IMG/VR virus record: IMGVR_UViG_3300044247_000057
Span: 1-64,000 of that record
Strand: one strand, 5' to 3'
Source of the DNA: a virus
Lineage: Duplodnaviria > Caudoviricetes
Length of the DNA stretch: 64,000 bases
Shown: one piece after another, positions 36,522 through 57,359 of the stretch
Numbering within the stretch: position 1 is the stretch's first letter
How the letters are laid out: every line of letters starts with the position of its first letter
Made by a program: the position numbers and the translations under genes
Notes under the pieces: generated by a model
Databases searched by the model: none
Seen by the model: only the letters and a program-made list of their open reading frames with translations
Told to the model about the DNA's origin: nothing

Positions 36522-38351
36522 ATGTCGACTGAGTACGTGAACCCACCGGCAGGCGGGTATCCGGAGATCATTGACGTCGCCGTGGACGGCGAAGCCAAGA
36601 AGATCCCGGTCGGTCCGCCCTTTGTCGAGCTCGGTGGCACCGGCCTGAAGCGGTCCACCGGAGTCATCGACGAGGAGTTCCTGCCCGCGCTACGCGGGAC
36701 CAAGGGCGTCAAGGTCTTCACCGAGATGTCGCAGAACGATGCGACCATCGGTGCTCTGCTCTTCACCATCGAGAAGCTGCTGCGTGAGGTCACCTGGACG
36801 GTGGTGGGGGACGACTCCTCCCCCGAGCAGGCGAAGGCGGTGCAGTTCGTCGAGGAGTGCATCGACGACATGTCCCACAGCTTCGACGACCTGGTGGCGG
36901 AGATCCTGAGCATGCTCCCCTATGGGTGGAGCTGGCACGAGATCGTCTACAAGAAGCGCATCGGTCCCTGGGAGAACGACGGGCGAAGGCGCAGCAAGTT
37001 CACGGACGGCAAGATCGGCTGGCGCAAGATGCCGATCAGGGCCCAGGAGACGCTGCATCGCTGGCTGTTCGACGACACGGGTGGCATCAAGGGCATGGTG
37101 CAGATCCCGGCCCCCACCTACACCCAGCGCACGCTGAGCATCGAGCGGTGCCTGCTGTTCCGCACGGGCGCGCACAAGGGCAACCCCGAGGGTCGCTCCA
37201 TCCTGCGCAACGCCTACCGGCCCTGGTTCTTCAAGAAGCGGCTGGAGGAGTTCGAGGCCATCGGTGTGGAGCGTGACCTGGCCGGTCTACCCTTCGCCAA
37301 GGTCCCCAGCCAGATCATGAAGCCGGACGCGACGCCGCAGCAGAAGCAGCTGTTCACGGCGTTCAAGCGCCTGGTGAGCAACGTCCGAAGGGACGAGCAC
37401 GACGGTGTGGTCATCCCCTCGGACGTGGACCCGGACACCAAGACGCCAGAGTACGACTTCCAGCTGTTGAGCTCGGGTGGTGGCAAGACCTTCGACACCA
37501 ACGCCCTGATCGAGCGGTACAGCACCGAGATATTGATGACCGTGCTGGCCGACTTCATCAAGGTTGGTCACCAGGGAACGGGCTCCTACGCCCTCCATGT
37601 GGACAAGACGGGCATCTTCCGGGCCGCGCTGAACAGCATCGCCCAGGGCATCGCGGACGTGTTCAACCGCCATGCCATCCCCCGGCTGTTCGCCATGAAC
37701 CAGTGGAAGCTGGACAAGCTCCCCCGGATCGAGCCCAGCAACGTCGACCCGCCCAACCTGGCTGAGCTGGGTGCCTTCATGCAGACCATGGCCGGACTGG
37801 GGATGACCTTCTTCCCGGACCCGGACCTGGAGAAGTTCCTGCGCGAGGCCTCGCACCTGCCCGATCTCCCCCAGGAGGTGGAGGAGATGCGGCGGGAGGA
37901 GGCCGACATGCAGAACGCCATGGCCTTCGAGGGCGCGAAGCAGAAGCAGCAGATGGTGGCCGAGGGGATGACCCCGGAGCAGGCTGAGATGCAGGCCCAG
38001 GCCCCCACACCCGAGATGCAGGAGCAGGAGCAGGCCGGGGCCATGCAGCAGCAGGAGATGGATGCCCAGGGCAAGCAGATGGACATGGACATCAAGGGCC
38101 GCGACGCCGAGCTGAAGATGCAGGGCCAGAAGCAGGGTCTGGAGATCGACGGCAAGTCCAAGCGGCAGGCCCTGGAGCACGACCGCAGGGCCAAGGATCT
38201 GGAACACCGGCACAACAAGCGGTCCAAGGACCTGGAGTACACCCACAAGAAGCGCATCAGTGAGCTGAGCATCCGGGAGAAGAAGGAAGCCATGAAGCAG
38301 CGGCCCAAGGCGAACGAGCCCAAGAAGACCTTCCCGAAGAAGAAGAAGTGA
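36522..38351 (+). CDS. portal protein with long C-terminal helical extension
   Basis: ELGGTGLKR...EEFLPALRG...EM..ND..IGA, GRSILRNAYRPW, IGVERDLAGLP (DUF935/Mu gp29-like portals). Confidence 0.9.
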   Translation: MSTEYVNPPAGGYPEIIDVAVDGEAKKIPVGPPFVELGGTGLKRSTGVIDEEFLPALRGTKGVKVFTEMSQNDATIGALLFTIEKLLREVTWTVVGDDSSPEQAKAVQFVEECIDDMSHSFDDLVAEILSMLPYGWSWHEIVYKKRIGPWENDGRRRSKFTDGKIGWRKMPIRAQETLHRWLFDDTGGIKGMVQIPAPTYTQRTLSIERCLLFRTGAHKGNPEGRSILRNAYRPWFFKKRLEEFEAIGVERDLAGLPFAKVPSQIMKPDATPQQKQLFTAFKRLVSNVRRDEHDGVVIPSDVDPDTKTPEYDFQLLSSGGGKTFDTNALIERYSTEILMTVLADFIKVGHQGTGSYALHVDKTGIFRAALNSIAQGIADVFNRHAIPRLFAMNQWKLDKLPRIEPSNVDPPNLAELGAFMQTMAGLGMTFFPDPDLEKFLREASHLPDLPQEVEEMRREEADMQNAMAFEGAKQKQQMVAEGMTPEQAEMQAQAPTPEMQEQEQAGAMQQQEMDAQGKQMDMDIKGRDAELKMQGQKQGLEIDGKSKRQALEHDRRAKDLEHRHNKRSKDLEYTHKKRISELSIREKKEAMKQRPKANEPKKTFPKKKK

Positions 38352-39394
38352 GCACCGCCGACATCCTGCGACAGCAGGGGGTGGACGTCCGGCTGGTGAT
38401 GAAGGCGGCCAGGGACGACAACCAGCACAAGCGTGCTGGCGGTGGTGCCATGGTCGGGGCAGGCGGCGTCGCTGCTGCCGGTGGCTTCGCTGGTGGCGGG
38501 GTTCCGGGACTGAAGTCGGACCGTCTGCTGATGGACGTCACGGGTGCGGCCAACCGGCGCGAGAAGGTGAAGATGGCTGCGCGGGCGTACAAGGGCGGGG
38601 AGTTCGGCTACCGGACCAACGCCCACCACACGCACCAGGCCTTCAACCTCAGCGATACCAAGGCTGCTCCCGATGCTTCTCGGGTTGCTCATCTCAAAGC
38701 CGCCCACAACGCCGGACAGAGTGCTGCCGAGACCAAGATCATCCGGCACCTGAAGGTGGCCCGGAAGGGGTCGCACGCTGCCCTGGTGGGTGGTGCCGGT
38801 CTGACCGCCCTGGGTGTGCACCGCATCCGGCAGGCGAAGAAAAACAAGGCACAGCCGGTCTCCAAGGCGGAGAAGAAGGGTGACACCGCCTTCGGTGCCG
38901 CCCTGGGTGCCGGTGCTGCGACGGCTGGGGTCAGTGTGGGTGGTGCCCGGGCGCTGGAGCACCACGGGCGCAAGTGGTCCCGCTCAGCTGCTGCTGACCT
39001 GGATGAGGCGCACAAGATCATCCCGAACTCGGGCGGGCACAAGGTCAACCCCTTCCCGGGCAAGACGAACCCCCGGGTGCCCGACATCGGCCCGGAGAAG
39101 GGCGAGTCGAAGGTCTGGCGGGACCCGAAGATCCTGGCGGGGAAGTCCAAGGCCCAGGCCGCGAAGGTGGGAGAGCTGCGCGGGAACGCCATGAAGAGCC
39201 GCTACTTCGCCGGGGTGTACGGGAAGATGGGTGGAGCTGTTCGCCGCATCCGTAACCCTGCCATCGGGGTGGCCACGGTGGGTGCGGGCGGTCTGGCGGT
39301 GACCCATCACAAGAAGAAGGACAAGGTCGCCAAGTCCCTGTTCGAGCTCCGTGTGGAGTCGATGCACCCAAAAGCACAGTCAGCAAGGGGGTAG
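38348..39394 (+). CDS. basic Gly/Ala-rich putative internal virion protein A
   Basis: Hydrophobic G/A helices flanked by K/R clusters; VMK-A, VSK-A, VAK-S motifs. Confidence 0.75.
   Translation: MSTADILRQQGVDVRLVMKAARDDNQHKRAGGGAMVGAGGVAAAGGFAGGGVPGLKSDRLLMDVTGAANRREKVKMAARAYKGGEFGYRTNAHHTHQAFNLSDTKAAPDASRVAHLKAAHNAGQSAAETKIIRHLKVARKGSHAALVGGAGLTALGVHRIRQAKKNKAQPVSKAEKKGDTAFGAALGAGAATAGVSVGGARALEHHGRKWSRSAAADLDEAHKIIPNSGGHKVNPFPGKTNPRVPDIGPEKGESKVWRDPKILAGKSKAQAAKVGELRGNAMKSRYFAGVYGKMGGAVRRIRNPAIGVATVGAGGLAVTHHKKKDKVAKSLFELRVESMHPKAQSARG
39367..39373 (+). other. candidate -1 ribosomal frameshift heptamer C-CCA-AAA
   Basis: XXXYYYZ in correct phase; GGAG 8 nt upstream; -1 frame open into ORF 39460..40782. 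Confidence 0.6.
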
Positions 39395-40782
39395 GCCTTG
39401 CGGGTCTGGTCGAGAACGCTGCCACCGCCACCGCTGGCAGCGTAGGCCTCAGTGAAGCCGTGCGGCGGAAGCGGCGGCGCAAGCGGGCCAAGGTCGCCAA
39501 GTCCTTCATCAACGGCAAGTTCGTCCGGGCCGTCGATCTGGGTGCCAAGCAGAAGCACAAGATCCGGACGGTGAACCAGTACGCCCAGTCCAAGGGCGCT
39601 CTGGGCAACCGCTCCGACCCCGTGCTGTCGGGCTACCGGAAGAAGATCGAGACCGAGGCAGGTCCCTTGCGGGAAGCCTTCAAGACCGGCGACCAGGCCA
39701 AGCTGGCTGAGTTCGGCGAAAAGGCTGGTTTCGACGCCTTCGCCCACCGGATGGGGGGCAAGGGCGGCGGCAAGTCCATGGTTCACATCACGCCCAAGAA
39801 CGAGTACAAGGAGAAGTTCGTCAGCCAGTCGATGGGTGAGAAGTCCCACGGCCACCTCGGCAGACACGAGGCCGCGCACGCCTCGACGAAACGATCCGAG
39901 TACCGGTTGCACGGTCAGATCCCGGCCAGCATGAAAAAGCACGGTCGGGAGGAGGGGCGGGCCGACTTCATCGCCAGTGGTCACTACAGGGGCGCTGGAC
40001 ACAAGCCCACGGAGTTGGGTGAGGCACCTTCCGGCTACTCCAATGCCGTCCAGCAGTGGGAGAAGCCTGGGTTCAAGAAGAAGACCATCCCTGAGGCGCG
40101 CAAAGCCCACGTGGAAGCGGGTGCTTCGTCCAAGGAGTTCGACCGGACCATCAAGGGTCAGAACAACTGGAACAAGGGCTACCGCCAGGTGCACGAGAAG
40201 ATGCAGGCGGCCAAGACCGCCCGCACCGTCAAGCCCCAGGTCGCTCCCAGGCCGGTGGCCGAGCCTGCCCCCACTCCCGCACGGCCCGCGTACATCCCCG
40301 GACCAGGACCTCAGACCGCTCCCAAGCCAGGTCGGTTCAAGCGGATCTTCAGCCGCAAGGACCGGGTGGGCAAGGCCTACACAGTGAGGAAGGCAGACAT
40401 GGAGTTCCCGATGAAGGGGGAGATCGCCAAGATGCTCCCCACCATGGCTGAGAGGAAGCTCATGGTGGCGGATAACAAGCTGCGGCGGGCTGCCGACAAG
40501 GTGACCCAGAAGGCCCACTTCAAGGCCCAGAAGACGGCGCAGAAGACAGCGCTCGGCACCACGAGGCAGATGACCAGGGACTTCAAGGCTGCCAATCCGG
40601 GGAGGAAGACGACGGCGCAGTTGCAGGAGCACCACGACGCCGTGAAGGCGGTGCGCGATCAGCACTGGGCCCAGAAGCAGTCCGGGATCATCGCCCACAA
40701 CAAGCGCCCGGGGAAGATGCGCAGCCAGTGGGCTGGAGACCCCAACCTGCCCGGCACGCGCACCACGATGTTCGGTGGCTGA
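39373..40782 (+). CDS. HExxH metallopeptidase-domain virion protein (probably the frameshifted C-terminal part of protein A)
   Basis: HEAAH (39865-39879) with downstream EEGRAD; no credible own RBS/start; VAK-S, VGK-A, VRK-A motifs. Confidence 0.65.
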   Translation, partial: STVSKGVGLAGLVENAATATAGSVGLSEAVRRKRRRKRAKVAKSFINGKFVRAVDLGAKQKHKIRTVNQYAQSKGALGNRSDPVLSGYRKKIETEAGPLREAFKTGDQAKLAEFGEKAGFDAFAHRMGGKGGGKSMVHITPKNEYKEKFVSQSMGEKSHGHLGRHEAAHASTKRSEYRLHGQIPASMKKHGREEGRADFIASGHYRGAGHKPTELGEAPSGYSNAVQQWEKPGFKKKTIPEARKAHVEAGASSKEFDRTIKGQNNWNKGYRQVHEKMQAAKTARTVKPQVAPRPVAEPAPTPARPAYIPGPGPQTAPKPGRFKRIFSRKDRVGKAYTVRKADMEFPMKGEIAKMLPTMAERKLMVADNKLRRAADKVTQKAHFKAQKTAQKTALGTTRQMTRDFKAANPGRKTTAQLQEHHDAVKAVRDQHWAQKQSGIIAHNKRPGKMRSQWAGDPNLPGTRTTMFGG

Positions 40783-41639
40783 TGCCCGACGCAGATCTGA
40801 CCTTCCGAGTGGGCCTGAAGGTCAACCAGATGCCTAAGACCAACCTGCTGCAGAACGCCGTCTACGAGTCCATCGACCGCAAGTGGTACCTGTGTCAAGC
40901 CCAGGACGCGGGAGCTCGGGACCGGGAGCACAGCATGATCCGGCGCTTCTCCCGCACGGGCACGTTCGAGGGCACCACCAAGTGCGAGCTGTTCGGCCAC
41001 GGCAACCAGATCGGGGTGCGCAAGTCAGCCGCAGGCAACGTCTGGATCTGGGTGCCGATGGACTCTTACAACGGCTCCGGTCACACCACCAGCACCAAGC
41101 CTGCTCGGGTCGTCTTCGAGAAGGGCTCTACCCGGGTGCGCAAGGAGTCGGCGGTGGTCGACATCTATGACGGTGGGCTGGCTAACCAGGGCTTCGGGCT
41201 GTCGGCGGAGAACCCCGGCATCCTCTACCTGCGGAAGGGCCACTCCGGCTCCGAGACCTACCGGATGGTGGACGAGGAGGCCTACCGCAAGGGCAACGGC
41301 AAGTCCAAGGTGTACGGCGAGGTCGAGGTCTCCAAACACAACCGGGGGAAGTACTTCCAGGGCTGTGGGGCAGGCGGGGACACTCTGGCCGTGCTGTCCG
41401 GCTCCACTGGTCACAACCAGTACATCGACGTCTACAGCTTCGAGAAGCGCAAGAAGCTGACCCGGCTGACCATCCCGATAAGCCAGATCTACCGCTGCCT
41501 GAAGAGCGGTGGAGCCACCTACAGCAGTGCCGAGGCCGAGGGCCTGCAGTTCATCGACGGTGCCCTGTACATGGGTGCCCGCTCGGGCCCACCGGGGAAG
41601 AAGCGCGACTTCTCCATCATGGAGGTGTCCGGATGGTGA
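40782..41639 (+). CDS. beta-propeller protein (P68 RBP/TagC-like)
   Basis: LQNA...WYLCQ...FGHGNQIGV...VWIW...AEAEGL pattern. Confidence 0.6.
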   Translation: MPDADLTFRVGLKVNQMPKTNLLQNAVYESIDRKWYLCQAQDAGARDREHSMIRRFSRTGTFEGTTKCELFGHGNQIGVRKSAAGNVWIWVPMDSYNGSGHTTSTKPARVVFEKGSTRVRKESAVVDIYDGGLANQGFGLSAENPGILYLRKGHSGSETYRMVDEEAYRKGNGKSKVYGEVEVSKHNRGKYFQGCGAGGDTLAVLSGSTGHNQYIDVYSFEKRKKLTRLTIPISQIYRCLKSGGATYSSAEAEGLQFIDGALYMGARSGPPGKKRDFSIMEVSGW

Positions 41640-41818
41640 CCGACGAGATCTCCAAGGACCTGGCCAACCACTGGTACTACTCCACGGCCTGCCTGCACGA
41701 GAGACACGACGCCTGTCGAGAGACCTGCAAGTTCTGCCATGACCCCTGTCACTGCGTCTGCCATCCAGACGCCGCCGAGACAATGATCTCCAGGAGAAAG
41801 GTCGCTCACATCGAGTGA
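41633..41818 (+). CDS. small Cys/His-rich protein
   Basis: HWYYSTACLHERHDAC...CKFC...CHCVCH. Confidence 0.7.
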   Translation: MVTDEISKDLANHWYYSTACLHERHDACRETCKFCHDPCHCVCHPDAAETMISRRKVAHIE

Positions 41819-41845
41819 CCCGGGGGCTCCGACAAGGAGAACCCA

Positions 41846-42970
41846 ATGCTCAGAGCCCTGGTGATCGCTGTCCTCTTCCTGTTCATGGGAGGCAGCGCCG
41901 CCCAGGCTCAGCCTCCTCGACCTGGTCTGTGCACCGGTCTGACGGGGGACGCACTGACCAAGTGCCTGTACTCCGACACCGACGACCGGCTCAGGGCTCT
42001 CGGGTCTGTCCCCACCACTGCGCCCACCTCGCCCACGACTGCGCCCACCACAGTCGCACCCACCACTGCTCCGCCGACGACCGCACCACCAGCCTCTGGT
42101 GACTGGCTGAGCGGGGCCAGCGGTACGGAGGCAGCCAACGGCACCTTCGGCACCTGGCGGGGCACTCCTGTCGAGATCGCCACCTTCTGGATCAACGACC
42201 CGGCCCTCTACCCCATCGGACCCAAGATCTCCGGCTGTGGGGGCTGCGGGGAGTGGGCTGGGTTCAACGGCCCGGTCAGCATCAGCTCCTCACCCGCCAA
42301 CTGGCAGGGCTGGTCCGCTGAGGCCAACGGTGCCAACGACACCTTCTGGACCGCTGTGGCGCGCAAGGCGAAGGAGCTGCGTACAGGCAAGGGGCAGGTC
42401 TACATCAACCCCTACTACGAGTTCAACGGGGACTGGATGCCGTACTCGGTGGCTCGTACCACCCAGGGGCAGACCGACTTCCGGAACGCCTTCGCCCGCA
42501 CCTCGGCCATCCTGCGACGGGAGTTCCCGGGTGTGAAGGTCGTCATCAACCCCGGTGCCGGACGCACGGTGCCGGATGCCATGTGGCCCGCCAAGGACGC
42601 CTTCGACGTGGTAGGGATCGACACGTACAACGAGTGGCCATGGTGCGGGACAGCCTCCTGCCAGGGCACCCAGATCGCCCGGATCGAGACCTTGCGGCTG
42701 CAGGCAGCTGCGCGGGGGAAGCCGATCTCGTTCCCGGAGTGGGGCAACTCCTCCGTCGCCTCCTCTGCGGGTGGCGGAGGAGACAGTCCCGCCTTCATCG
42801 ACGCCTTCCACACCTACCTGCGCGACCACGCGGGTACGGGCGCGGGGCAGGTGGTGTACGAGACCTACTTCAACGTGGGTGGCTACGACGCTCACTACGA
42901 GCTCTACCTCAACGGCGCAGTCAACATTCGCCAGCCACAGACGGCGGCTCAGTACCGAGCGAGGTTCTGA
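41846..42970 (+). CDS. secreted glycoside hydrolase family 26-like enzyme
   Basis: Signal peptide, Pro/Thr linker, YYEFNGDW (acid/base), DVVGIDTYN, KPISFPEWG (nucleophile). Confidence 0.8.
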   Translation: MLRALVIAVLFLFMGGSAAQAQPPRPGLCTGLTGDALTKCLYSDTDDRLRALGSVPTTAPTSPTTAPTTVAPTTAPPTTAPPASGDWLSGASGTEAANGTFGTWRGTPVEIATFWINDPALYPIGPKISGCGGCGEWAGFNGPVSISSSPANWQGWSAEANGANDTFWTAVARKAKELRTGKGQVYINPYYEFNGDWMPYSVARTTQGQTDFRNAFARTSAILRREFPGVKVVINPGAGRTVPDAMWPAKDAFDVVGIDTYNEWPWCGTASCQGTQIARIETLRLQAAARGKPISFPEWGNSSVASSAGGGGDSPAFIDAFHTYLRDHAGTGAGQVVYETYFNVGGYDAHYELYLNGAVNIRQPQTAAQYRARF

Positions 42971-42996
42971 CCGAGACAGTTCCGGGAGAATGAGGT

Positions 42997-43575
42997 ATGC
43001 CTTGGGAACAAACCGGCAGTGGCTACAAGACGAGTCGTGGTGGCTTCGTCAAGAACCCCGCTCAGTACGAGAAGCTGCGGGGCAAGGGCATGTCCAAGGA
43101 ACGAGCGGCACGGATCGTCAACAAGGAGCTGAGGATGAAGGATCCCATCGAGATCATGAAGGCTGATGCTCTCTGGCGTCGTGACGACGAGGACATCGAG
43201 AAGGGCATCTTCGGTGGTCTGGCCCAGGGGCTGAAGCGCACCCAGGCCATCGGTCCGATGCAGCGCGGCACTCAGGCTGGCTTCAACGCCGGTACTGCTA
43301 TCCGCAGCGCGGGCAGCAAGGTCGCGGGTGCGTTCAGGCGGACTGGTGGTCAGGTGAAGGCCGGTGCCCAGACCGCCCACGGTCCACTGCCTGCCACTGC
43401 CCCCACGGCCACCAAGGTCGGACAGCAGGCTGCACGCGCCCCGGGTCGTCTGGTGGCGGCAGTCAAGGAGCGTCCCAAGACGGCCATCGGCGTAGGCGCT
43501 GCCACAGCCGGGCTTGCTGGTGGCGGTGCCTACACGGCTGGGCGCACCCACAAGAAGCGGACAGGTCGTCCCTGA
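42997..43575 (+). CDS. basic putative internal virion protein
   Basis: IMK-A, IEK-G motifs; C-terminal G/A helix plus basic tail. Confidence 0.7.
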   Translation: MPWEQTGSGYKTSRGGFVKNPAQYEKLRGKGMSKERAARIVNKELRMKDPIEIMKADALWRRDDEDIEKGIFGGLAQGLKRTQAIGPMQRGTQAGFNAGTAIRSAGSKVAGAFRRTGGQVKAGAQTAHGPLPATAPTATKVGQQAARAPGRLVAAVKERPKTAIGVGAATAGLAGGGAYTAGRTHKKRTGRP

Positions 43576-43576
43576 G

Positions 43577-44452
43577 ATGTACGGGCTGGTCTCCAAGGCT
43601 GACCTGGCGCGCAGCCAGTGGGCCGACGTGAGCAAGAACCTGGTGGAGTTCCAGAATCCGGGCAGGTCCAAGAAGCAGCGGGCCACCGAGGCAGCTGGAG
43701 CGACGGTCGCCACAGGCGGGGCCACTGCCGCCGTGGGTGGTCTGCTGTCCCGCAGACGCGCTCTCGGGCTGGCAGGTAAGTCTGAGGAGGCAATCAAGCA
43801 GCCGAGGATGCAGATGGTCGCCCGCGCCGAGCACACTGCTCGTGCGGGGGCCGAGAGGCTGCATGCTGCCCGAGCAGGAAAGGCCTCCAAGATCGGGGCA
43901 GGGGTGACCGCTGTCGGTCTGGGTGGACTGGCCTACAGCCAGAGGGGCAAGCGGAAGAAGGTCGAGTTCGGCAAGGCCCTCACCAAGAAGGAGAGGGAGG
44001 ACCGGAAGGGTCCTCAGCTCCCCAAGAACCCGGTGGTGACCGGAGGCCTGGGACTGGGTGCGGCAGGAGCTGGTCTCTTCGGCGCTACCCGTCCGGTGTA
44101 CTGGAACCAGCGGAAGAAGTCCGTAGCAGCAGAGGGTGTCTCCTCGGCGGCCTGGAAGGAGGCCAAGGGCCATCAGGCAGCTGGTCATGAGGCTCAGAAG
44201 CTCTCGCAGAAGCGCAAGAGCACGACGTCTCCAGGGGATGCCCTGAGGCACTTTGCGGCCCATGACGAAGCTCTGGGCAGGGCCCAGAAGTACTCCACCA
44301 TGTCCACCGACGCCAAGGCCGGTGCGCTGAAGACCGCCAAGCTCGGACGCAAGGGACTGATCGGTGCGGTCGGAGGAGCGACCGCTGTGGGTGCTGGGCT
44401 GGGCTACGACAAGTACCAGAAGCGCAAGGCGCGCCAGGCTGAGCAGATGTGA
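43577..44452 (+). CDS. basic Gly/Ala-rich putative internal virion protein
   Basis: Starts MYGLVSK-AD; four G/A hydrophobic segments each followed by K/R clusters; FGK-A. Confidence 0.75.
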   Translation: MYGLVSKADLARSQWADVSKNLVEFQNPGRSKKQRATEAAGATVATGGATAAVGGLLSRRRALGLAGKSEEAIKQPRMQMVARAEHTARAGAERLHAARAGKASKIGAGVTAVGLGGLAYSQRGKRKKVEFGKALTKKEREDRKGPQLPKNPVVTGGLGLGAAGAGLFGATRPVYWNQRKKSVAAEGVSSAAWKEAKGHQAAGHEAQKLSQKRKSTTSPGDALRHFAAHDEALGRAQKYSTMSTDAKAGALKTAKLGRKGLIGAVGGATAVGAGLGYDKYQKRKARQAEQM

Positions 44453-44694
44453 CCAGGAAGCAGAAGGTTCGACAGTTCCCGACCAAGGACGAGGCCTACG
44501 CCCTGGGTCGGAATGCCCAACGGCTGATGCCCGGGAACAAGGGCAAGGTGATCAACGCCGGGTTGACGATGGCAGAGGAGACGAACAAGCGACTCATCCC
44601 CATCGTCGTCCAGAAGGACTCTCCTGCCGGACCCGATGTCGGTACGTTGAAGGCCTTGCGAGTAGTGAGGAGAAAGAAGCGTGCCCGCAGCTGA
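44449..44694 (+). CDS. small basic protein
   Basis: GTGA overlap; VVQK-D; ends RVVRRKKRARS. Confidence 0.6.
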   Translation: MTRKQKVRQFPTKDEAYALGRNAQRLMPGNKGKVINAGLTMAEETNKRLIPIVVQKDSPAGPDVGTLKALRVVRRKKRARS

Positions 44695-47416: not shown

Positions 47417-47423
47417 GAGCGAC

Positions 47424-47612: not shown

Positions 47613-48235
47613 TGCAGATCGGGCAGAACGTCCAGGTCACCGCCAACACCGGGCTGCGGGCCCGGCTGACCCCGCACGGGAAGCCCGCCAAGGACAGCAA
47701 GGGCAAGGAGATCGTCCGGCCCAAGGGCTACCGGTTCACCGTCACCCGGACCGAGTCCGGCTACGCGAGAGCCAAGTCCTACTGGTACGCCGAGCAGTAC
47801 CTGCAGGTGGTGGTGCAGACCGTCGCCGTCAAGGTCTCCTCCCCCTGCCCCGGGTACAAGGTCTCCACCCCGTACAAGAAGAAGCCGAACAACAACACCT
47901 ACTGGCAGTCCCGGGGCTACCACACGGGCGATGACTATGCGGCCCCCTCAGGCGCGAAGGTCGTCGCGGTGCGCAGTGGCACGGTCAAGTACCGCTGGGA
48001 CAAGGTGCTGGGACACTGTGCCCTGCTGCAGGGCAAGGACGGGGCTGGGAAGCAGTACACCTGGTGGTACTGCCACCTGCGAGCTCAGCCCACCACCGGC
48101 AGCGTGAAGCCCGGTCAGACCATCGGGCACGTGGGCTCCACCGGCACCGGGGCCAACGGGCCCCACCTGCACTTCGAGAAACGCTCTGGCTACACGACGT
48201 CGTGGGCCGGGAAGGACCTGAGTCCGACATGGTGA
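47612..48235 (+). CDS. endolysin, SH3-like domain + M23 peptidase
   Basis: HTGDDY, WYCHL, GSTG...GPHLHFE. Confidence 0.9.
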   Translation: MQIGQNVQVTANTGLRARLTPHGKPAKDSKGKEIVRPKGYRFTVTRTESGYARAKSYWYAEQYLQVVVQTVAVKVSSPCPGYKVSTPYKKKPNNNTYWQSRGYHTGDDYAAPSGAKVVAVRSGTVKYRWDKVLGHCALLQGKDGAGKQYTWWYCHLRAQPTTGSVKPGQTIGHVGSTGTGANGPHLHFEKRSGYTTSWAGKDLSPTW

Positions 48236-49680: not shown

Positions 49681-49874
49681 GCGACATCATCAAGTGGTTC
49701 TCCCACGGCCACCTGCCTGCTCCCCAGCAGGAGGTGGCTCAGGCGATCCAGGACCTGGCCCAGAAGATGGAGGCCACTCTCCCCGAGACTGCTGAGAAGA
49801 CGGCAGGACTCAGGAAGCTGCTGGAGGCCAAGGACTGTTTCGTGCGGGCCAGCCTGGAACTGACCCAGGAGTAG
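49677..49874 (+). CDS. small helical-hairpin protein, possibly Acb2/Tad1-like
   Basis: IIKWFSHGHLP...LPETAEKTAGLRKLLEAKDCFVRA. Confidence 0.6.
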   Translation: MSDIIKWFSHGHLPAPQQEVAQAIQDLAQKMEATLPETAEKTAGLRKLLEAKDCFVRASLELTQE

Positions 49875-49896
49875 CCAAGGACGGGAGAATGACCCC

Positions 49897-52707
49897 ATGG
49901 ACTTCAACCGCAATGTGGCTGACTGGGTGTACGGGCTGGTCTCCAAGATGGACGACGGTGAAGCCCGCATGTTCACGGTCTTCCTGGCCGAGGACCTGTA
50001 CCAGACCGATCTGAAGAACAACGCCAAGCTGGTCGAGCGCACCCGTGCCTCGGTCGAGAAGGCGATGACCGACGAGCTGGCCAACGACTTCCTGTTCCGA
50101 CTGGAGCGTGGGGTCAACCCCGAGCAGCTGGTGGCTGAGGCCGCAGCGGTGGCTATCGCCAAGGCCGACGATTACGAGGCCTGGAAGTTCCAGACCCGTG
50201 AACACGGGCGCTGGGCCAAGATGGGTCCCGGCTACTGGAAGGCCCAGAAGAAGGCCATCAAGGCTGAGGGTGACTACGCCAAGCAAGCGGCGATGATGTC
50301 TGCGATGCGCTTTCATCACGGTGACCAGATCAAAGCCATGGGCGAGGATCTGGGCCCCCAGGTGCATGGCGTCCAGCAGCAGTGGAACAAACGCTCCACG
50401 GGTCAGTCCGGAGCCACGGACACCTTCAACCGGATCACCGCAGCTGGTCGGACGACAGCCCTCGTAGGTGTGGCCACCGACCAGCCCAACGTCTACGCGG
50501 CTGGTCAGGCTGCCTCCCTGGTGGGTCAGTTCGGGCCCGAGGCAGAGAAGGTCGTCGGTCCTGCCGTACGCCGCACTGCGTACCGGTACCGGGGCACTGA
50601 GACGAAGCCGCAGACCAAGGAGATCAAGGCGGCGGCCAACAACCGTGCTCGGGAGCTGTTCCCCACTGAACGGGACAAGAAGGGCGTTCCGACCGGTCAA
50701 GGGATGGCTCCGCTGGCCGATCTGAAGTCCGGTGCTGCGCGTCCGGAGAACGTGGACCGACTGGACGAGAGCAAGCGGGACTTCGTCCTGCAGATGGGTG
50801 CCGCCGACCATCTGGCCACCAAGATCCCCTCGCTCGCCCTGGCCAACCTGCAGGTCAAGTCCGGCAAGATCCCGCCCTCTGAGGGCGTCATCATCAACGG
50901 CGATGGCCAGGTGACCGCGCAGGCGGTGGGTTTCGCCGAGGACCATTACCTCCCCTTCAACCTGCGCAACCTGGGTGAGCTCAACGGTGGGCGCTACGTG
51001 CGTACGCGCACGACCGGTGGTCCGACGTCGGAGGACATCCACGCGGCCACGCTGGCTGGTGCCCGGTCCTTCACAGTGGTCTCCCGCTCCGGTGAGTTCA
51101 CCGTCGACTTCGCTGACGACTTCCGGGGTGCCCGTCGCCACTCGGACAAGGCGATGGGGATGCAGAAGCAGTACGAGCAGCTGCTGGACGCGGTGAAGTC
51201 CAAGCAGGTGGAGAAGCTGCCCACGTCCGCCCGGGAGCGTGCTGAGGTCCGGGAGGAGCTGGAGGACGAGATCGAGCGGCTGAAGAGCGACCCAGCCTCT
51301 GGCTTCGACTACCAGACCTACACCGACAAGATGTTCAACGAGGAGCTGAACCGGCGACTGACCCAGCGTCGGCAGAACCCGAAGCTGACTTCTGAGGAGA
51401 TCACGCGGATCGACGAGTTCGCCTGGAACGGCCTGAACAGGCAAGCTCCCACCGACCGGGAGAAGGTCGAGCACGACAAGGCGGTCAAGCAGCTCTCCCG
51501 TCGCGTGCTGCGGGAGAAGGGCAACCAGAACTTCAAGCTGGACGGCGACGGCTACAAGGCGGCTCTGGAGGCGCTGAAGGAGCAGTACCCATACTTCATC
51601 GCTGACATCCGGGTGCGCTCCGCTGGCGACGCGCCGGAGGACTTTGGCGACGGCACCGACCAGGGCTACGTCAAGCCCCGGCACATCCGGGCCGAGGCAG
51701 CTCAGGCTGGGTACTTCGGTGTCGGTATCGAGGGTGCTACGAGCACCAAGCGGTCGGCGGAGAACCTGCACTACCAGAACTGGGGTGTGCGGCAGAACAT
51801 GAAGACCGCAGCGCCGCAGGGTACCGAGCAGACCGAGGAGGAGAGGGACACCAACCCCTCCACCATCCCGGCCACTCCCCAGCCAGGCCAGACCCCTGCG
51901 GTCACCGCCGTGGGTGGAGGAGGAGCCACCTCAACGGCTACCTCTCCGCAGGAGCACGCTCAGGCGGGAGAGAGGGCATCCCGGGTCCAGACTGCCGAGA
52001 TCGAGCGGGACAACTCTGTCTACCAGGCGGCGCACTACTGGGCTGACCGGCTACCGCCGAAGGACAGTCCCTCCTACGCCTACATCCCGGCTGAGGCCAA
52101 GATCCTGGATGAGCTGCGAGATGCTTCCGATCCCAAGTCGTTCACCGACAGGAACCGGGAAGCGATCAAGCGGGCTGTCGCTCACATCTCTGCCGCCCCC
52201 GAGAGCCGTACGGCGCTGGCCGGGGCACCGAAGATCGTGGACAACGTAGAGGAGGTCAAGCGTGCGGTGGCCGCCAACCGCCCGGTCTCCCTCACTCCCC
52301 AGCCACTGACCCAGGACGACATGCGGATTCTGCACGAGCGAGGTCTGATCAAGCACACCGCCATCCTGGGTGGAGGGACGCTGCAGGATGAGGGTCCGGA
52401 CACCAAGGACCTGTCCGACGACAGGCTGCGACAGAAGATCATGGCCTGGCAGGGGCAGCATGACCGGGAGACCAGCCCGGTGGAGCGAGCCAAGATCAGG
52501 GAGAACCAGCTCGACTACAACCGGCTGCTGGCCTTCCGCAAGCACAAGCTGGAGCGGGGTCGGGCGAACAACACCCCGTTCTCTCCCGCTGGCGGTCCGC
52601 CGCCGACCACGACTCCTCCGCCCACGGGATCGTTGCCGCCCGGTGCCGGGTCCAACACCTACAACCCGAACAGCAACGTCCGCGACTTCCGGCGTAGGAG
52701 CGCCTAG
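49897..52707 (+). CDS. large putative internal virion protein (936 aa) with degenerate JAB/MPN-like segment
   Basis: VYGLVSK, VEK-A, IAK-A motifs; EGVII..DG...GGPTSEDI...FTVVSRSG. Confidence 0.75.
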   Translation: MDFNRNVADWVYGLVSKMDDGEARMFTVFLAEDLYQTDLKNNAKLVERTRASVEKAMTDELANDFLFRLERGVNPEQLVAEAAAVAIAKADDYEAWKFQTREHGRWAKMGPGYWKAQKKAIKAEGDYAKQAAMMSAMRFHHGDQIKAMGEDLGPQVHGVQQQWNKRSTGQSGATDTFNRITAAGRTTALVGVATDQPNVYAAGQAASLVGQFGPEAEKVVGPAVRRTAYRYRGTETKPQTKEIKAAANNRARELFPTERDKKGVPTGQGMAPLADLKSGAARPENVDRLDESKRDFVLQMGAADHLATKIPSLALANLQVKSGKIPPSEGVIINGDGQVTAQAVGFAEDHYLPFNLRNLGELNGGRYVRTRTTGGPTSEDIHAATLAGARSFTVVSRSGEFTVDFADDFRGARRHSDKAMGMQKQYEQLLDAVKSKQVEKLPTSARERAEVREELEDEIERLKSDPASGFDYQTYTDKMFNEELNRRLTQRRQNPKLTSEEITRIDEFAWNGLNRQAPTDREKVEHDKAVKQLSRRVLREKGNQNFKLDGDGYKAALEALKEQYPYFIADIRVRSAGDAPEDFGDGTDQGYVKPRHIRAEAAQAGYFGVGIEGATSTKRSAENLHYQNWGVRQNMKTAAPQGTEQTEEERDTNPSTIPATPQPGQTPAVTAVGGGGATSTATSPQEHAQAGERASRVQTAEIERDNSVYQAAHYWADRLPPKDSPSYAYIPAEAKILDELRDASDPKSFTDRNREAIKRAVAHISAAPESRTALAGAPKIVDNVEEVKRAVAANRPVSLTPQPLTQDDMRILHERGLIKHTAILGGGTLQDEGPDTKDLSDDRLRQKIMAWQGQHDRETSPVERAKIRENQLDYNRLLAFRKHKLERGRANNTPFSPAGGPPPTTTPPPTGSLPPGAGSNTYNPNSNVRDFRRRSA

Positions 52708-52710
52708 CCG

Positions 52711-54789
52711 ATGGCCACTCCGCATCCGGAGAGCAGGTTCAAGGGGTTGCTCCTCTCTCCGGAAGAGGCCGCTGCGGTCGCCGGGATACGTGCCCGCATG
52801 CCAGTCGGAGTGCGGTCGGTCGGTCTGGCCCTGTCGGCGGTCTTCTCGCTCTACCGCTGGATCATGCAGCGTCGGCTGAAGGACGTTCAAGGAACGACTC
52901 CGGCGCTGATGGAGCAGGCCCTGCTGCTCGGGCTCCGGGAGTCCTTCATCGCCTTCCAGCCCACCCTGACGTCGATGACCACGCCGATCATGTACGCGGG
53001 CTATCTGGTCGGTGTGCAGGAGTCCGGGGTGAGGCTGCCTCAGCATGTGCTGGCGCAGATGGCCAACGGCTACGCCCCGAGCCTGGGGAACTACATCCAC
53101 ACCGTCAGCAGCGACGCCCTGCTGGCAGGCTTCCGGGCCCTGGTGAACCGCAAGGTCGACCACAGACGTGCCCTGAAGCTGACCACCGACGCCTACGGGG
53201 TCGACACCCGGACCATGAACACGCTGGTCAACGTGTGGACCGCCGAGGAGGCCAAGGGCTTCACCAACGTGCGGCAGATCGTCTCGGTCAAGGAGAAGCG
53301 GGCCGCCACGATCATCGCTCAGAAGGTCAAGGAGCGGGCCCACATCCTGGGTGCGCACGAGGCCTGGAACGCCAAGGAGCAGGCCAAGGAGGCGTCCTGG
53401 CTGTGGGCGATGGAGAACGGGATCATCACCGGGGCGGCTCGCAAGATGTGGGTGACCGCCGATGACGAGCGGGTCTGTGCCTCCTGTGGCCCCCTGGACA
53501 AGGTCCAGATCAAGGTGACCGACAGGTTCGAGACCACCGTGGGCAAGACGCTGACCCCGCCGCTGCACGTCGGCTGCCGGTGCGAGGTCACGCTGAGCGC
53601 CAGCATGCGTCGGATCCTGCTGGGACAGCTCCGCAGGAAGCCGGTGAGGAAGGCCTACGAGGGGCACCCCTGGGCCCGGAACCAGAAGCGCAACGAGGAA
53701 GGTGAGTGGGTCAAGGGCCCCAGCAGCGCCCATGGTCAGCCCCAGCCCGCGCTGGCACCACAGCCGGTGTACGACCCGGAACCACCAGAGCCCCCGCCGT
53801 CCGCTCCGGTGGAGGAGGAGTACATCGCCTTCGGGCCTCAGTACATCGCCTTCGCTCCACAGCCTGCTGAGCCGATTCAGTTCGGGCCACCACCACAGCA
53901 GGCGTCCCCTGCTCCCGCTACTCCACACATCGAGTTTCAGCCTCGACCCGAGGCGATCCAGTTCGCCCCGCCACCTGCGCAGTCCATCGAGTTCAAACCA
54001 CACACGACGCCGTTCTCGCACGCCACCTACACCCCGTCCCAGGCGACGCCGCAGCCGGTGGCTCCGCGCCCGAAGGAGCGGCAGCGGTTCGAGGAAGAGC
54101 AGTGGAAGCCGCCCAAGCCGAGCATCATCACCCTGGACCGGGGCGAAGAGGTCTACGGCGTGGTGCCGGACGACTTGGACCACGTCGAGGACTACGAGCT
54201 CGACCAGAATCGGATGGTCAACGACTTCGCCGACGCGCACGAAATGGTCGAGAACCAGTTGGCTGAGAACTACACCGAACGCATCTACGACGCTCTGGAG
54301 GAGGAGGGGAAGGACCTGGTCCCCATCTACTCCGAAGGTGGCGAGCAGTACTACGCCGACTACGAGGGCCTCCGGTCACTGTTCGAGTGGACCAGGGCCA
54401 AGCAGATCTACGAGGACCGGAAATCGTCGGGGATGCCGGAGTACATGGATCCACCAGTGTCCTTCGACCCGATGCAGGAGATCCAGGTTCACTCCAACTA
54501 CGACAACAGGGCGCACCAGATCGAAGCCGAGGTGTTGTCCCGCAAGGGTCGGCTCCGGGGTCAGGCCATTGATGACGTGATCGAGGAGATCACACCGTCG
54601 TTGGTCAAGGTCGACCGGATCGACATGGAGTTCAGTACCGAGGACCTGGGCTTGAACCGCAGAGACCACCCTGACTGGATTGTCACTGGTCCCCACCACA
54701 ACATCGAGGTTCTCGGCTCGATCACCGACCCCGAGACCGGTCAACGGATCCTGGCTCACGCCTACCATCTCGACCCCTTCGACGAGTAG
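52711..54789 (+). CDS. MuF-like (SPP1 gp7-like) minor head protein with C-terminal extension
   Basis: KMWVTADDERVCASC...PPLHVGCRC; then VRK-A, Pro-rich linker, acidic domain. Confidence 0.85.
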   Translation: MATPHPESRFKGLLLSPEEAAAVAGIRARMPVGVRSVGLALSAVFSLYRWIMQRRLKDVQGTTPALMEQALLLGLRESFIAFQPTLTSMTTPIMYAGYLVGVQESGVRLPQHVLAQMANGYAPSLGNYIHTVSSDALLAGFRALVNRKVDHRRALKLTTDAYGVDTRTMNTLVNVWTAEEAKGFTNVRQIVSVKEKRAATIIAQKVKERAHILGAHEAWNAKEQAKEASWLWAMENGIITGAARKMWVTADDERVCASCGPLDKVQIKVTDRFETTVGKTLTPPLHVGCRCEVTLSASMRRILLGQLRRKPVRKAYEGHPWARNQKRNEEGEWVKGPSSAHGQPQPALAPQPVYDPEPPEPPPSAPVEEEYIAFGPQYIAFAPQPAEPIQFGPPPQQASPAPATPHIEFQPRPEAIQFAPPPAQSIEFKPHTTPFSHATYTPSQATPQPVAPRPKERQRFEEEQWKPPKPSIITLDRGEEVYGVVPDDLDHVEDYELDQNRMVNDFADAHEMVENQLAENYTERIYDALEEEGKDLVPIYSEGGEQYYADYEGLRSLFEWTRAKQIYEDRKSSGMPEYMDPPVSFDPMQEIQVHSNYDNRAHQIEAEVLSRKGRLRGQAIDDVIEEITPSLVKVDRIDMEFSTEDLGLNRRDHPDWIVTGPHHNIEVLGSITDPETGQRILAHAYHLDPFDE

Positions 54790-54811
54790 ACGCGCAAAGG
54801 AGAATGAACCC

Positions 54812-55732
54812 ATGGACGTGGTCAAGGCACTGCAGGAGCACAGCGAGGCTGGTGCCACCATCGTCGACCTGCTCTACGGGGACGCGGGCGCAGAGGTCTC
54901 CAAGGCGCTGATCGAGTTCGGCAAGGAAGAGAAGAAGAAGGACACCCAGAAGCGGATCGCCCAGGTCTCCAACCTGGTCGGTATCGGAGCCGGTGCGGCA
55001 GCCGTCCCCGGTGCCTTCAAGCAGCTCGGTGAGGCGCACCGGAAGTACTACAAGCGCCCCGAGAAGCCGAAGAACACCACCCAGACCCGCAAGCTGATCG
55101 CCACCGCCAAGCACGGGACGGGGATCAAGCGCGTGGGAGCCAAGGGTGTGCTGAAGGCGCGCAAGCTCTACCGCAACCCCAAGGTCGTCCTGGGACTGGC
55201 TGGTGCTGGTGCTGGGCTACAGGTGGGCAACCTGGCGGGCGACACCATCACCAACCAGGTGCTGAACCGGAAAGAGAAGAAGGCCGGTGCGACGCCACCG
55301 CCCAAGGAGTTCGGCAAGACGGAGTTCGACATCTACACCGAGATCTCCAAGGTCGACTCCGACAAGCGTCAGGTCTTCGGCTGGGCCTCCGTGACCAAGT
55401 CCGGTGGCATCGACGTGGTCGATCTCCAGGGTGACGTGATCCCACTGGAGGAGATCGAGAAGGCCGCTTATGAGTTCGTCAAGAAGTCCCGGGTCGGCGG
55501 CAAGATGCACGGCAAGGGCGAGGCCGGACCGATCCAGGTCTCCGACATGATCGAGTCCTTCGTGGTCACCCCGGAGAAGAAGGCGGCCATGGGCCTCCCG
55601 GACGAGACGCCGGAAGGCTGGTGGGTCGGCTTCAAGGTGAACGACGACAACACCTGGGCCGAGGCCAAGGACGGCAAGCTGGCCGGTTTCAGCGTCCACG
55701 GGAGCGGGCGGAGGGTCCCGACTGATGCCTAG
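54812..55732 (+). CDS. XkdF-like prohead serine protease with G/A-rich N-terminal extension
   Basis: ISKVDSDKRQVFGWA...DLQGD...IEKAAYEF...MH...ES...GWWVGFKV...GFSVHG; ATG 54812. Confidence 0.85.
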   Translation: MDVVKALQEHSEAGATIVDLLYGDAGAEVSKALIEFGKEEKKKDTQKRIAQVSNLVGIGAGAAAVPGAFKQLGEAHRKYYKRPEKPKNTTQTRKLIATAKHGTGIKRVGAKGVLKARKLYRNPKVVLGLAGAGAGLQVGNLAGDTITNQVLNRKEKKAGATPPPKEFGKTEFDIYTEISKVDSDKRQVFGWASVTKSGGIDVVDLQGDVIPLEEIEKAAYEFVKKSRVGGKMHGKGEAGPIQVSDMIESFVVTPEKKAAMGLPDETPEGWWVGFKVNDDNTWAEAKDGKLAGFSVHGSGRRVPTDA

Positions 55733-56486
55733 CCTGATCACGCTGGAGAGCATCGAGAAGAAGGAGTGGAGCGAAGAGCAGCTGGCGCGTCGCAAGAAGC
55801 TTGGCGCTGCCGGTTCCATCGCCACCTCCACCCTGGGCCTTGGTTCCCTGGGCGTTCTGGCTCTGCGCTCGAAGCCAGCTGGGAGGGCGATCAAAGAGAT
55901 CGGAGAGCATGCTCCCAAGGCGGAGATGTTTGCCGGTAAGAAGGTAGGCCATGCGGTCGGAGCAACGGGCGGACGGCTGGAGAAGATCAGAGCAGCAGTG
56001 AAGGGCGCGGAGACCCCGATCCTGGCCACCAGCGCCGGGATCGGTGGACTGAACGGCTACAACTTCGCTGCCATCCAGCGTCAGGAGAGCAAGAAGTCGA
56101 AGAGACACAACGCGGAGTACGCCGATCTGAGGAGCAAGGTCAACCGGCTGGACGCGAAGGTGAACAAGCTCTACGACCCCGAGGAAGAGCGGCACAAGCA
56201 GAACAAGATCGCTGCCGGGGTGCTCGCAGCCGGTGGGGCCGGGTCCATTGCTGCCGCCGTTCCCCAGGCTCAACAGGCCCTGCATCAGAAGGGTCGGATC
56301 AAGAACCTGAAGACCAAGGCGGCCAAGGCGCGGGCCGGACGGATCAGGAACGTGAAGGGTGGCAAGGCGGCTCTGCTCGCACTGGGTGGCGCTGGGGCCA
56401 TCGGCGGCGGCGTGAAGCTCGCCACCAACGAGCGAAGCAGGCGCGGGAAGACCTACTCAGCGGCGTACCGGCCCCAGTACTACTGA
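55725..56486 (+). CDS. basic Gly/Ala-rich putative internal virion protein
   Basis: IEK, VNK motifs; four G/A hydrophobic segments with basic flanks. Confidence 0.75.
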   Translation: MPSLITLESIEKKEWSEEQLARRKKLGAAGSIATSTLGLGSLGVLALRSKPAGRAIKEIGEHAPKAEMFAGKKVGHAVGATGGRLEKIRAAVKGAETPILATSAGIGGLNGYNFAAIQRQESKKSKRHNAEYADLRSKVNRLDAKVNKLYDPEEERHKQNKIAAGVLAAGGAGSIAAAVPQAQQALHQKGRIKNLKTKAAKARAGRIRNVKGGKAALLALGGAGAIGGGVKLATNERSRRGKTYSAAYRPQYY

Positions 56487-56525
56487 GGCACCATCGTTGC
56501 CACCCTCGACATAATAGGGACTGAA

Positions 56526-57359
56526 ATGCCGAACAGATTGAGCGACATGATCTTCGACGAGGTGAGCCTCGTCTACAAGGGCGCGAACCAGCACTCGCGG
56601 GTCGCCATCGCCAAGTCTGCTGACGGCGTCGAACAGGAGGAAGCCATGGGATACACCGATCAGGATGGGAACCCCGTCGACGTCAACAGCCTCGCAGAGG
56701 GCGATGTTGTCTTCGATGAGGACGGGCAGGGGTTCGTCTACACCGAGCAGGACGTGGACGAGATCGAGGTCGAGGAGTACGAGGAAGAGCCCCAGCTGGT
56801 GGGCAAGAGCTTCCCGACCCGACAGACGTACGCGCAGGACCCGGACTTCGAGCAGGACGTGCGGTGGAGCCTCTCCAAGGCCGTCACCGACGAGGACCGC
56901 GACGAGGTCATCTCCAAGGCCGCTGGCTACATCTCGCACCTGGAGAGCCTGGTCCACAAGGCGCAGGCCGATGTCGAGGTCGAGCGGGAGATTCGCCGCG
57001 AGTCCGAGTACATGGAGATCGCCAAGTCCTACGGGGGTCTCCCGGTGGGCGAGGAGCAGCTCGCGGCAGCCCTGATGGACTGCGCGGACAACCTCGACGA
57101 GTCCAGCATCGTGACTCTGCAGAAGTGCCTCTCGGCAGCCAGTGACTCGGCTCTCAACGAGATCGGTGCCACGGGCGGCGGATTCAACTCCGACGTGATG
57201 GCGGTCATCGAGCAGCACGCCAACTCCGGGGTCTCCAAGAGTGAGGACTCCTCCACGGAGGCCGAGATCGCCAAGGCCTTCGAGCAGGACCCGTCCTTGT
57301 ACGCGCAGTACCTCAACGAGACCGGTGGCTACAACAGCGCACCGCGTTACAACTTCTGA
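56526..57359 (+). CDS. capsid scaffolding protein with N-terminal DEVSLV..GAN strand
   Basis: Acidic, eight x-x-K-(S/A) motifs, C-terminal helix; directly upstream of decoration and capsid genes. Confidence 0.8.
   Translation: MPNRLSDMIFDEVSLVYKGANQHSRVAIAKSADGVEQEEAMGYTDQDGNPVDVNSLAEGDVVFDEDGQGFVYTEQDVDEIEVEEYEEEPQLVGKSFPTRQTYAQDPDFEQDVRWSLSKAVTDEDRDEVISKAAGYISHLESLVHKAQADVEVEREIRRESEYMEIAKSYGGLPVGEEQLAAALMDCADNLDESSIVTLQKCLSAASDSALNEIGATGGGFNSDVMAVIEQHANSGVSKSEDSSTEAEIAKAFEQDPSLYAQYLNETGGYNSAPRYNF

Follow-up and report, generated by a model that had tools for sequence, protein, structure and literature searches.

Candidate Lys-directed cleavage sites at module borders in the head proteins of an uncultured siphovirus-type phage

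The window analysed here, the first 64 kb (64,000 nucleotides) of a 77,886-bp IMG/VR virus record of ~64% G+C (IMGVR_UViG_3300044247_000057), contains a head module whose proteins look like a protease-processed, polyprotein-like set, a view that is well supported by comparison with related head modules. One way to understand the set is as follows. An XkdF-type serine prohead protease would cut at sites with Val, Ile, Leu or Phe at P3, Lys at P1 and Ala or Ser at P1'; the acidic scaffold protein would be cut at about eight such sites and thereby removed. The same code would mark module borders in the N-terminal extension of the protease itself, in the Gly/Ala-basic protein encoded after it, in a further Gly/Ala-basic protein (gene 43577; genes are named by their first coordinate), and in a helical domain typified by gene 38348, probably joined to the HExxH-bearing part found in gene 39460. 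It would also free an N-terminal piece of ~89 residues from a conserved 936-aa protein (gene 49897), and separate the MuF domain of another protein from its C-terminal extension. The module proteins would most likely be co-assembled in the procapsid as fusions to, or partners of, the protease and scaffold; after cutting, separate basic, partly hydrophobic helical modules would stay with the DNA. Cleavage and a capsid-internal location are what we infer from the genes, and for the Gly/Ala-basic and 38348-family proteins the probability of being both procapsid-internal and processed is put at about 0.6.

The scaffold and its cleavage code

The features that anchor the code are these:

56526-57359, + strand: acidic scaffold protein with eight strict sites (K30, K94, K118, K131, K145, K167, K238 and K250)
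54812-55732, + strand: XkdF-type prohead protease (Pfam PF14550, Peptidase_S78_2, E 4.2e-18)
54902-54904 and 55316-55318, + strand: candidate protease sites K31 and K169, both ahead of the protease domain

The strict motif was defined as [VILF]-x-K-[AS], and expected counts were obtained by shuffling each protein. The scaffold contains eight such motifs where 0.41 are expected, so that eight of its ten Lys residues lie in one. A first-pass annotation, made from the letters of the window, had pointed to these eight motifs and to the same pattern in about ten head-region proteins; all the tetrapeptides it listed are present at the genes it named, and the scaffold motif proves to be a conserved, highly non-random feature. 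In 107 scaffold homologues, down to 27% identity, 757 strict motifs are found (64 expected), with Ile, Val or Leu at P3, mostly Ser, Ala or Gly at P2, and Ala or Ser at P1'. In the scaffolds of ten clade head modules, control patterns are depleted rather than enriched: Arg at P1 occurs once (5.1 expected), as does Asp or Glu at P1' (6.5 expected).

The code itself is not new: the junction that ends the scaffold domain of the HK97 capsid protein gp5 has this form, and the scaffolds of two cultured phages are enriched in it. Residues 101-104 of gp5 read F-N-K-S; K103/S104 (a slash marks the bond that is or would be cut) ends the scaffold domain, and three more such sites lie within it. The domain comprises 103 residues (PMC10275583). 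RDJL Phi 1 and KPP23 are distant relatives with XkdF-type proteases; the scaffold of the former (gp72) has nine motifs against 1.25 expected, and that of the latter (ORF085) ten against 1.66. Sites are also present in the MuF N-termini of both phages, and the KPP23 protease has one ahead of its domain. Taken together, the scaffold sites are very probably cleavage sites.

Scaffolds from relatives add a second feature. The 36 homologues of at least 300 aa carry, within an otherwise acidic protein, an insert of 60-190 aa that is 31-53% Gly+Ala; the net charge of the 20 inserts listed runs from +7 to +22. The inserts occupy a constant place, immediately C-terminal to the VGK site, and are flanked on both sides by strict sites in 20 of the 36, most others having a relaxed site. 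Gly/Ala-basic modules thus move among protease, scaffold and separate ORFs, since they occur as scaffold inserts, in the N-terminal extension of the protease and as stand-alone genes, and the candidate sites are the joints between these mobile modules.

The N-terminus of the scaffold (56526-56600) has a pattern of its own, D-E-[VI]-S-L-V-x-[KR]-[GP]-A-N, which is kept in the homologues inspected and is reminiscent of the final strand of HK97-family proteases; in the window, the ORF of the protease ends shortly after its Ser motif.

The protease and the protein encoded after it

The protease most likely starts at 54812, rather than at 54680. Its match to PF14550 (66.0 bits, against a curated cut-off of 24; residues 221-344 of the longer ORF) confirms the XkdF-type assignment made in the first-pass annotation. 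Two Gly/Ala segments lie in the N-terminal ~170 aa, ahead of a C-terminal protease domain. Seven sequences, with identities down to 39%, all keep His233 and Ser294, which are presumed to be catalytic from their membership of the family. The protein has six strict motifs against 1.22 expected (p ~0.001), three of them inside the folded protease domain, where an IEK/A motif is conserved. Near residue 31 the pattern E-[VI]-x-K-A recurs, with E28, K31 and A32 invariant in the seven sequences, and in the family a conserved site lies ~10-17 residues before the start of the conserved domain. The MDVVK/A site does not hold as a conserved one: its Lys is absent in four of seven relatives. The protease gene lies between portal/MuF and scaffold/MCP (major capsid protein) in the window and in ten relatives. 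Cleavage of head proteins with HK97-type Lys specificity is a candidate activity of this XkdF-type protease, one that we infer from sequence.

Directly after the protease comes a Gly/Ala-basic protein:

55725-56486, + strand: 253-aa Gly/Ala-basic protein between protease and scaffold
56166-56168, + strand: VNK/L (K148) of this protein, at the position of a conserved V-x-K/AYDPE site

Positional orthologues of 55725 are present in all relatives examined, and V-x-K/AYDPE is strict in several of them. In one relative (L009) the family is split into two genes, the second of which starts exactly after the position of V-x-K/AYDPE.

The helical domain family and its fusions

Two adjacent genes at the start of an 11.5-kb cassette supply a new domain family and its putative partner:

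38348-39394, + strand: 348-aa basic protein with an all-helical domain of ~300 aa
38402-38404, 38864-38866 and 39332-39334, + strand: candidate sites K19, K173 and K329 of this protein
39460-40782, + strand: 440-aa Lys-rich protein with HExxH and candidate sites K14, K305 and K311
39367-39373, + strand: CCCAAAA heptamer, 19 nt before the 38348 stop

A full HMMER scan, with alignments spanning residues 25-330, gave 132 cluster representatives of the 38348 family (E<=1e-10 for 111). The family has invariant Gly, Pro, Arg, His and Glu positions; no match was found in Pfam, PHROG or PDB sequences. At the K173 site, Lys is present in 42 of 44 stand-alone members, followed by Ala or Ser in 30. A confident AlphaFold (AF2) model built with 44 sequences (pLDDT 83.9, pTM 0.74) consists of very long helices, with K173 in a loop (166-176). 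Fold searches with this model gave no significant match; the top Foldseek rows are pore-forming toxins of the ClyA/Hbl/colicin type (E 0.13-3, TM <= 0.18), the best VIA hit (Z 8.2 over 63 residues) is below the level that is meaningful for helical bundles. Protein atlas scores of 0.83 are leads only.

Evidence for sites as module borders comes from proteins in which the 38348 domain is internal to a longer chain. Among 21 such proteins a strict site lies at the N-border in 19, where 3.2 are expected (28-residue window; Poisson-binomial P = 6e-15), and at the C-border in 14. The proposal that sites fall at module boundaries is thus borne out for this family. The fusions are varied. P0198 (947 aa) reads leader, Gly/Ala module, 38348-like domain, site, XkdF protease, site and additional Gly/Ala-basic modules; its gene takes the place of the protease gene, with MuF on one side and scaffold on the other. 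In P0204 a 55725-like module is joined via a site to a 38348-like domain, and in P0112 (53% identical) 38348-like and 39460-like parts share one 645-aa ORF. Pfam searches with ten long members of the family matched only the protease domain of P0198.

Gene context points the same way. In seven of seven contexts, genes resembling 38348 belong to the head module and are found between the genes for terminase and capsid protein: directly after the protease in three loci (L045, L046 and L050), and between terminase and portal in three others (L047-L049). An IMG/VR locus search with 38348 alone found nothing, and the 44-sequence alignment was too divergent for patterns; a nine-sequence alignment worked. 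Many members open with a shared leader, M-x-S-A-F-G-V-[ED]-H ... [IV]-S-K. More generally, a leader of the form aromatic-Gly-Val/Leu ... Val/Ile-Ser-Lys recurs in many 38348-family members, 43577, the 936-aa protein and the protease, its Lys being lost in some lineages. The YGLVSK that had been noticed in the window is indeed common to the N-termini of 43577 and 49897.

For 39460 the searches turned up no homologue of comparable length, and PDB sequence and profile searches gave nothing credible; two fused relatives, P0112 and P0131, are all there is to compare it with. HExxH and, ~23 residues on, REE-x-RAD-[FY] (together within 39865-39966) recur in both. This region, for which no Pfam or PDB sequence match was found, may be a zinc-peptidase-like domain within modular proteins. 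Read in the -1 frame, the stretch from the CCCAAAA heptamer into the GTG start of 39460 contains no stop and codes for a Gly/Ala segment, a motif-like site and a site-bearing basic cluster; the junction of 38348 and 39460 may represent a programmed -1 frameshift or a gene split.

The MuF protein and the 936-aa protein

Two longer proteins of the module carry candidate sites, one behind a domain and one near an N-terminus:

52711-54789, + strand: MuF-domain protein (Pfam Phage_Mu_F, PF04233, residues 205-293) with a C-terminal extension of ~380 aa
53650-53652, + strand: candidate site K314 of this protein, directly after the MuF domain
49897-52707, + strand: conserved 936-aa protein between portal and MuF, function unassigned
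50161-50163, + strand: candidate propeptide site K89 of this protein

The MuF match scores 31.7 bits (cut-off 29.6), and the position of the gene beside portal and protease is conserved. The site after the domain is strict in six of eight orthologues, and its Lys is kept in seven. Pfam recognised no toxin domain in the C-terminal extension. In one relative (L040, 5547-6524, minus strand) the MuF and protease genes are separated by an insertion on the opposite strand, which consists of a Phage_holin_2 holin gene and two small genes.

Orthologues of the 936-aa protein, 927 to 1241 aa long, occupy the same slot between portal and MuF. At the position of K89, hydrophobic-x-Lys is present in seven of seven orthologues, with Ala or Ser next in five; in the predicted model of the window protein the site lies within a low-confidence linker (residues 83-111). 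A second site of this protein, VSK/M, fares less well as a conserved one, its Lys being replaced by Gly in L009. The protein has no PHROG family, and PDB sequence and profile searches gave nothing credible.

A deaminase fold was considered for the 936-aa protein and rejected: the Foldseek rows were weak (E ~0.06, ~110 residues) and the model poor. The central alpha/beta part (~residues 290-570, pLDDT 70-85) is without the Cys/His zinc motifs of the cytosine-deaminase fold. In two distant relatives (L041, 1560-5285; L042, 5405-6373) an AAA+ ATPase domain (AAA, AAA_lid_6) either forms part of the large protein or comes next after it.

The Gly/Ala-basic proteins of the cassette

Two further proteins come from the cassette:

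42997-43575, + strand: 192-aa protein with a DUF7218 N-terminus (Pfam, E 2.6e-10), site K55 and a Gly/Ala-basic C-terminus
43577-44452, + strand: 291-aa Gly/Ala-basic protein with the YGLVSK leader (K7) and an FGK/A site at K133 (43973-43975)

The site in 42997 is known from this genome alone. Three homologues of 43577 were found, none of them by an IMG/VR locus search with 43577 alone; the block around K133 is invariant, and K7 is replaced by Gln in one of the three lineages, which removes LVSK/A from the conserved sites. No PHROG family was found for any of the Gly/Ala-basic proteins, and an all-against-all BLAST of the head-region proteins gave no clear paralogy among those of the window (best E 0.03).

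The slot between portal and large protein, which holds the cassette in the window, is empty in relatives or holds just a small gene there. Between 40728 and 49874 the cassette encodes an M23 peptidase whose N-terminal domain is shared with the next gene, a 911-aa fibre with collagen repeats, two proteins resembling receptor-binding propellers, and a glycoside-hydrolase-like protein whose N-terminus looks like a signal peptide; a close relative has an M23/propeller pair at the same place. This neighbourhood makes a virion location less certain for 38348, 39460, 42997 and 43577 than for 55725. There is room for a membrane or lysis role in the case of 42997 and 43577, for which comparison with relatives offers little or nothing.

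Alternative explanations

Several observations weigh against the picture of processed cargo, and the first concerns counts. Counted in the one genome, seven of the nine proteins show no more than chance-level numbers: 38348 has three motifs (1.38 expected), 39460 three (1.23), 42997 one (0.45), 43577 two (1.17), 49897 two (1.70), MuF one (0.90) and 55725 no strict motif (1.22). Of the whole set in which the first-pass annotation had noted the pattern, scaffold and protease exceed chance in the shuffle test; the other seven are near expectation. A motif no more frequent than in other Lys-rich phage proteins had been named there as grounds for giving the idea up, and this is what the window, taken alone, gives for all proteins except scaffold and protease. 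The window alone supports the motif only for these two.

Across relatives the pattern holds for most of these proteins, and conservation at particular positions is stronger evidence than family totals. The totals cover ten clade head modules, taken from around scaffold homologues, and observed over expected counts are 76/6.2 for the scaffold, 37/10.7 for the protease, 24/13.4 for the post-protease protein and 15/8.5 for MuF; the large protein, at 18/15.0, is not enriched even in total. Control proteins give 2/2.2 (portal), 3/3.0 (cement), 3/6.0 (MCP) and 1/3.4 (an acidic protein encoded after the capsid gene). Depletion in the shell proteins was considered as additional evidence and dropped, as the portal, cement and MCP values are too weak to carry it. 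Homologues are not independent samples, so the totals overstate significance. At conserved positions, moreover, P1' is sometimes not small (Asp, Asn, Leu, Lys or Met). The remaining points concern the proteins themselves: in some stand-alone members of the 38348 family the C-terminus comes 3-5 residues after a V-x-K-S motif; 38348, 39460, 42997 and 43577 lie in the cassette with fibre-like and lysin-like genes; the Gly/Ala segments are weakly hydrophobic, with best 19-residue Kyte-Doolittle means of 1.0-1.66 and one reaching 1.6; and no cultured relative carries the 936-aa protein, 38348 or 55725, for which tblastn gave no match in cultured phages.

The alternative that survives best supposes that the protease degrades the scaffold and processes itself, and that all other hits reflect a composition rich in Lys, Ala, Ser and Val, there being no processed cargo. 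The chance-level counts of the seven proteins, the large-protein total and the loss of some named sites in relatives are in its favour. Evidence against it comes from sites conserved position by position, which are seen in MuF, the large protein, 55725, 38348 and 43577, from the excess at 38348 domain borders, and from basic inserts bracketed by sites within scaffolds; we regard it as unlikely.

A second alternative takes the motif for a docking or structural element (a tag that binds protease or shell, or a helix cap), the Gly/Ala-basic proteins being recruited to proheads uncut. Many stand-alone 38348-family members keep the motif 3-5 residues from the C-terminus, where cutting removes almost nothing, and for these a docking or structural role fits as well as cleavage; the IEK/A conserved inside the folded protease domain is a further point in its favour. 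Against this stand the identity of the motif form with the junction that ends the HK97 scaffold domain, the L009 gene boundary that coincides with a site in fused relatives, and the eight sites in a scaffold that needs removal, which fit degradation. The docking explanation is distinctly improbable. That the Gly/Ala-basic proteins are host-membrane proteins of infection (holin-like, lysis-timing or exclusion proteins), near the head genes by accident, is less probable still: it would suit the repeated hydrophobic segments followed by basic clusters, the four that lie beside M23 peptidase, glycoside-hydrolase-like and fibre genes in the window, and the holin genes inside the head module of one relative, but the modules share a reading frame with the prohead protease (P0198, and the N-terminus of the window protease) and also occur as inserts in scaffolds, their hydrophobicity is mostly below the usual level of membrane helices, and the 38348 model is a soluble-looking bundle.

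Processed cargo remains the preferred reading. The part of the earlier polyprotein proposal that comparison upholds is the modular make-up of the Gly/Ala-basic proteins, with sites where their domains or genes meet, and their ties to protease and scaffold through fusion and gene order. The roles of the modules are guesses: they could neutralise DNA charge or act on membranes after ejection. The strongly basic character of the modules favours DNA binding, and the weakness of their hydrophobic segments leaves membrane insertion as no more than a possibility. Ejection of the Gly/Ala-basic and 38348-family proteins, followed by action on the host, is a doubtful proposition at present.

Relation to known systems

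HK97 is the closest precedent for the code. There, too, a serine prohead protease (gp4, Pfam Peptidase_S78) removes a scaffold part (the delta domain of gp5) at a hydrophobic-x-Lys/Ser-or-Ala junction. The present system differs in that the scaffold is a separate acidic protein, the protease belongs to the XkdF subfamily (PF14550), and the code borders several more proteins. To our knowledge HK97 has no internal cargo.

T4 is the precedent for the use of one code both in degradation of the scaffold and in trimming of packaged proteins with short N-terminal leaders (protease gp21; gp22, IPI-III, Alt, gp67 and gp68). The cleavage motif of gp21 is I/L-x-E (PMC12991175). Here a short leader that runs up to a motif site also recurs at N-termini, with its Lys lost in some lineages and a putative role in targeting. 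The differences are a predicted specificity for Lys rather than Glu, a siphovirus-type genome of ~78 kb rather than a T4-like myovirus, and a putative cargo that is modular and shuffled among protease, scaffold and separate genes.

For phiKZ and SPN3US, published work describes a prohead protease that recognises a short motif and cuts numerous head and ejection proteins there (PMC5694885, PMC7411985, PMC10052503). Those phages are jumbo myoviruses whose internal proteins are not the Gly/Ala-basic modular family found here, and nothing here implies an inner body. Cleavage in their heads is at Glu-type motifs. In adenovirus, a capsid-internal protease frees basic DNA-bound peptides and a membrane-active helix from precursors (pVII, pre-mu and pVI); lineage, protease fold and motif are unrelated, and the likeness to the basic Gly/Ala modules is a functional analogy only. 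Finally, MuF proteins with C-terminal cargo (the SPP1 gp7 type, and MuF polymorphic toxins) likewise have a MuF domain, encoded beside the portal gene, with a long variable C-terminal extension; in contrast to these, a conserved protease-type site lies here exactly at the junction of MuF domain and extension.

Protease-processed internal proteins (T4, phiKZ, SPN3US) and a Lys/Ser code (HK97) are thus already known. What appears to be new are the protein families, their shuffling between protease, scaffold and free genes, and their occurrence in a large uncultured siphovirus-type clade; a non-exhaustive search of the literature came across no account of such modules or of the specificity of XkdF proteases. 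If the reading is true, loading and processing of internal proteins extends beyond T4-like, jumbo and P1-type myoviruses to a large group of phages with long non-contractile tails and an HK97-type Lys code. Comparison has in any case defined a domain family without Pfam or PDB relative (>130 sequence clusters), a grammar of sites at module borders, and previously unremarked scaffolds carrying basic cassettes. The grammar could be used in predicting capsid cargo from sequence and in designing cargo loading into HK97-like capsids.

A bolder form of the proposal can be offered tentatively: a widespread uncultured siphovirus-type clade may pack a shuffled polyprotein kit, loaded by fusion to protease or scaffold, freed by the Lys protease and ejected with the DNA against host envelope or defences; among siphoviruses it would be the equivalent of T4 internal proteins, or of protein VI and mu in adenovirus. 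The parts of such a kit, should it exist, might be the ~300-aa long-helix domain, the Gly/Ala-hydrophobic and basic modules, the HExxH domain and the MuF-borne extension; on present comparisons both statements are more speculation than expectation.

Genome context and neighbouring genes

In the window the head module runs portal, 11.5-kb cassette (38348-49874), 936-aa protein, MuF, protease, 253-aa protein, scaffold, cement and major capsid protein. The canonical order in relatives is portal, large protein (0.9-1.2 kaa), MuF, protease, one or more Gly/Ala-basic proteins, scaffold, cement and capsid protein, with tail genes of siphovirus type downstream; the end of the window falls within a 2250-aa ORF at the tape-measure position. 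The genes at the two ends of the module are:

36522-38351, + strand: Mu-type portal protein at the start of the head module (Pfam Portal_Mu, E 2.8e-37), with no strict motif (1.3 expected)
57383-58824, + strand: cement protein (Pfam Phage_cement_2) and major capsid protein (sub-threshold Phage_cap_E), with no propeptide, motif not enriched

No close DNA relative was found among 50,697 cultured phage records. Identity of the capsid protein to those of cultured phages is at most 43%, the matches being KPP23 (43%), Rhizobium phages, RDJL Phi 1 and Arthrobacter phages. A search for related prophages in sequenced genomes gave matches to the protease domain only, in metagenome-assembled genomes (MAGs) of several phyla, and for this reason the host could not be named.

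The window also codes for a DnaB-type helicase, a Pol III alpha-type polymerase and a large terminase. A 382-aa protein without Pfam match (23140-24288) has three motif hits (p 0.035), probably by chance among ~85 proteins; it is followed by a 2040-aa ORF (24611-30733), function unassigned, with a very low Lys content.

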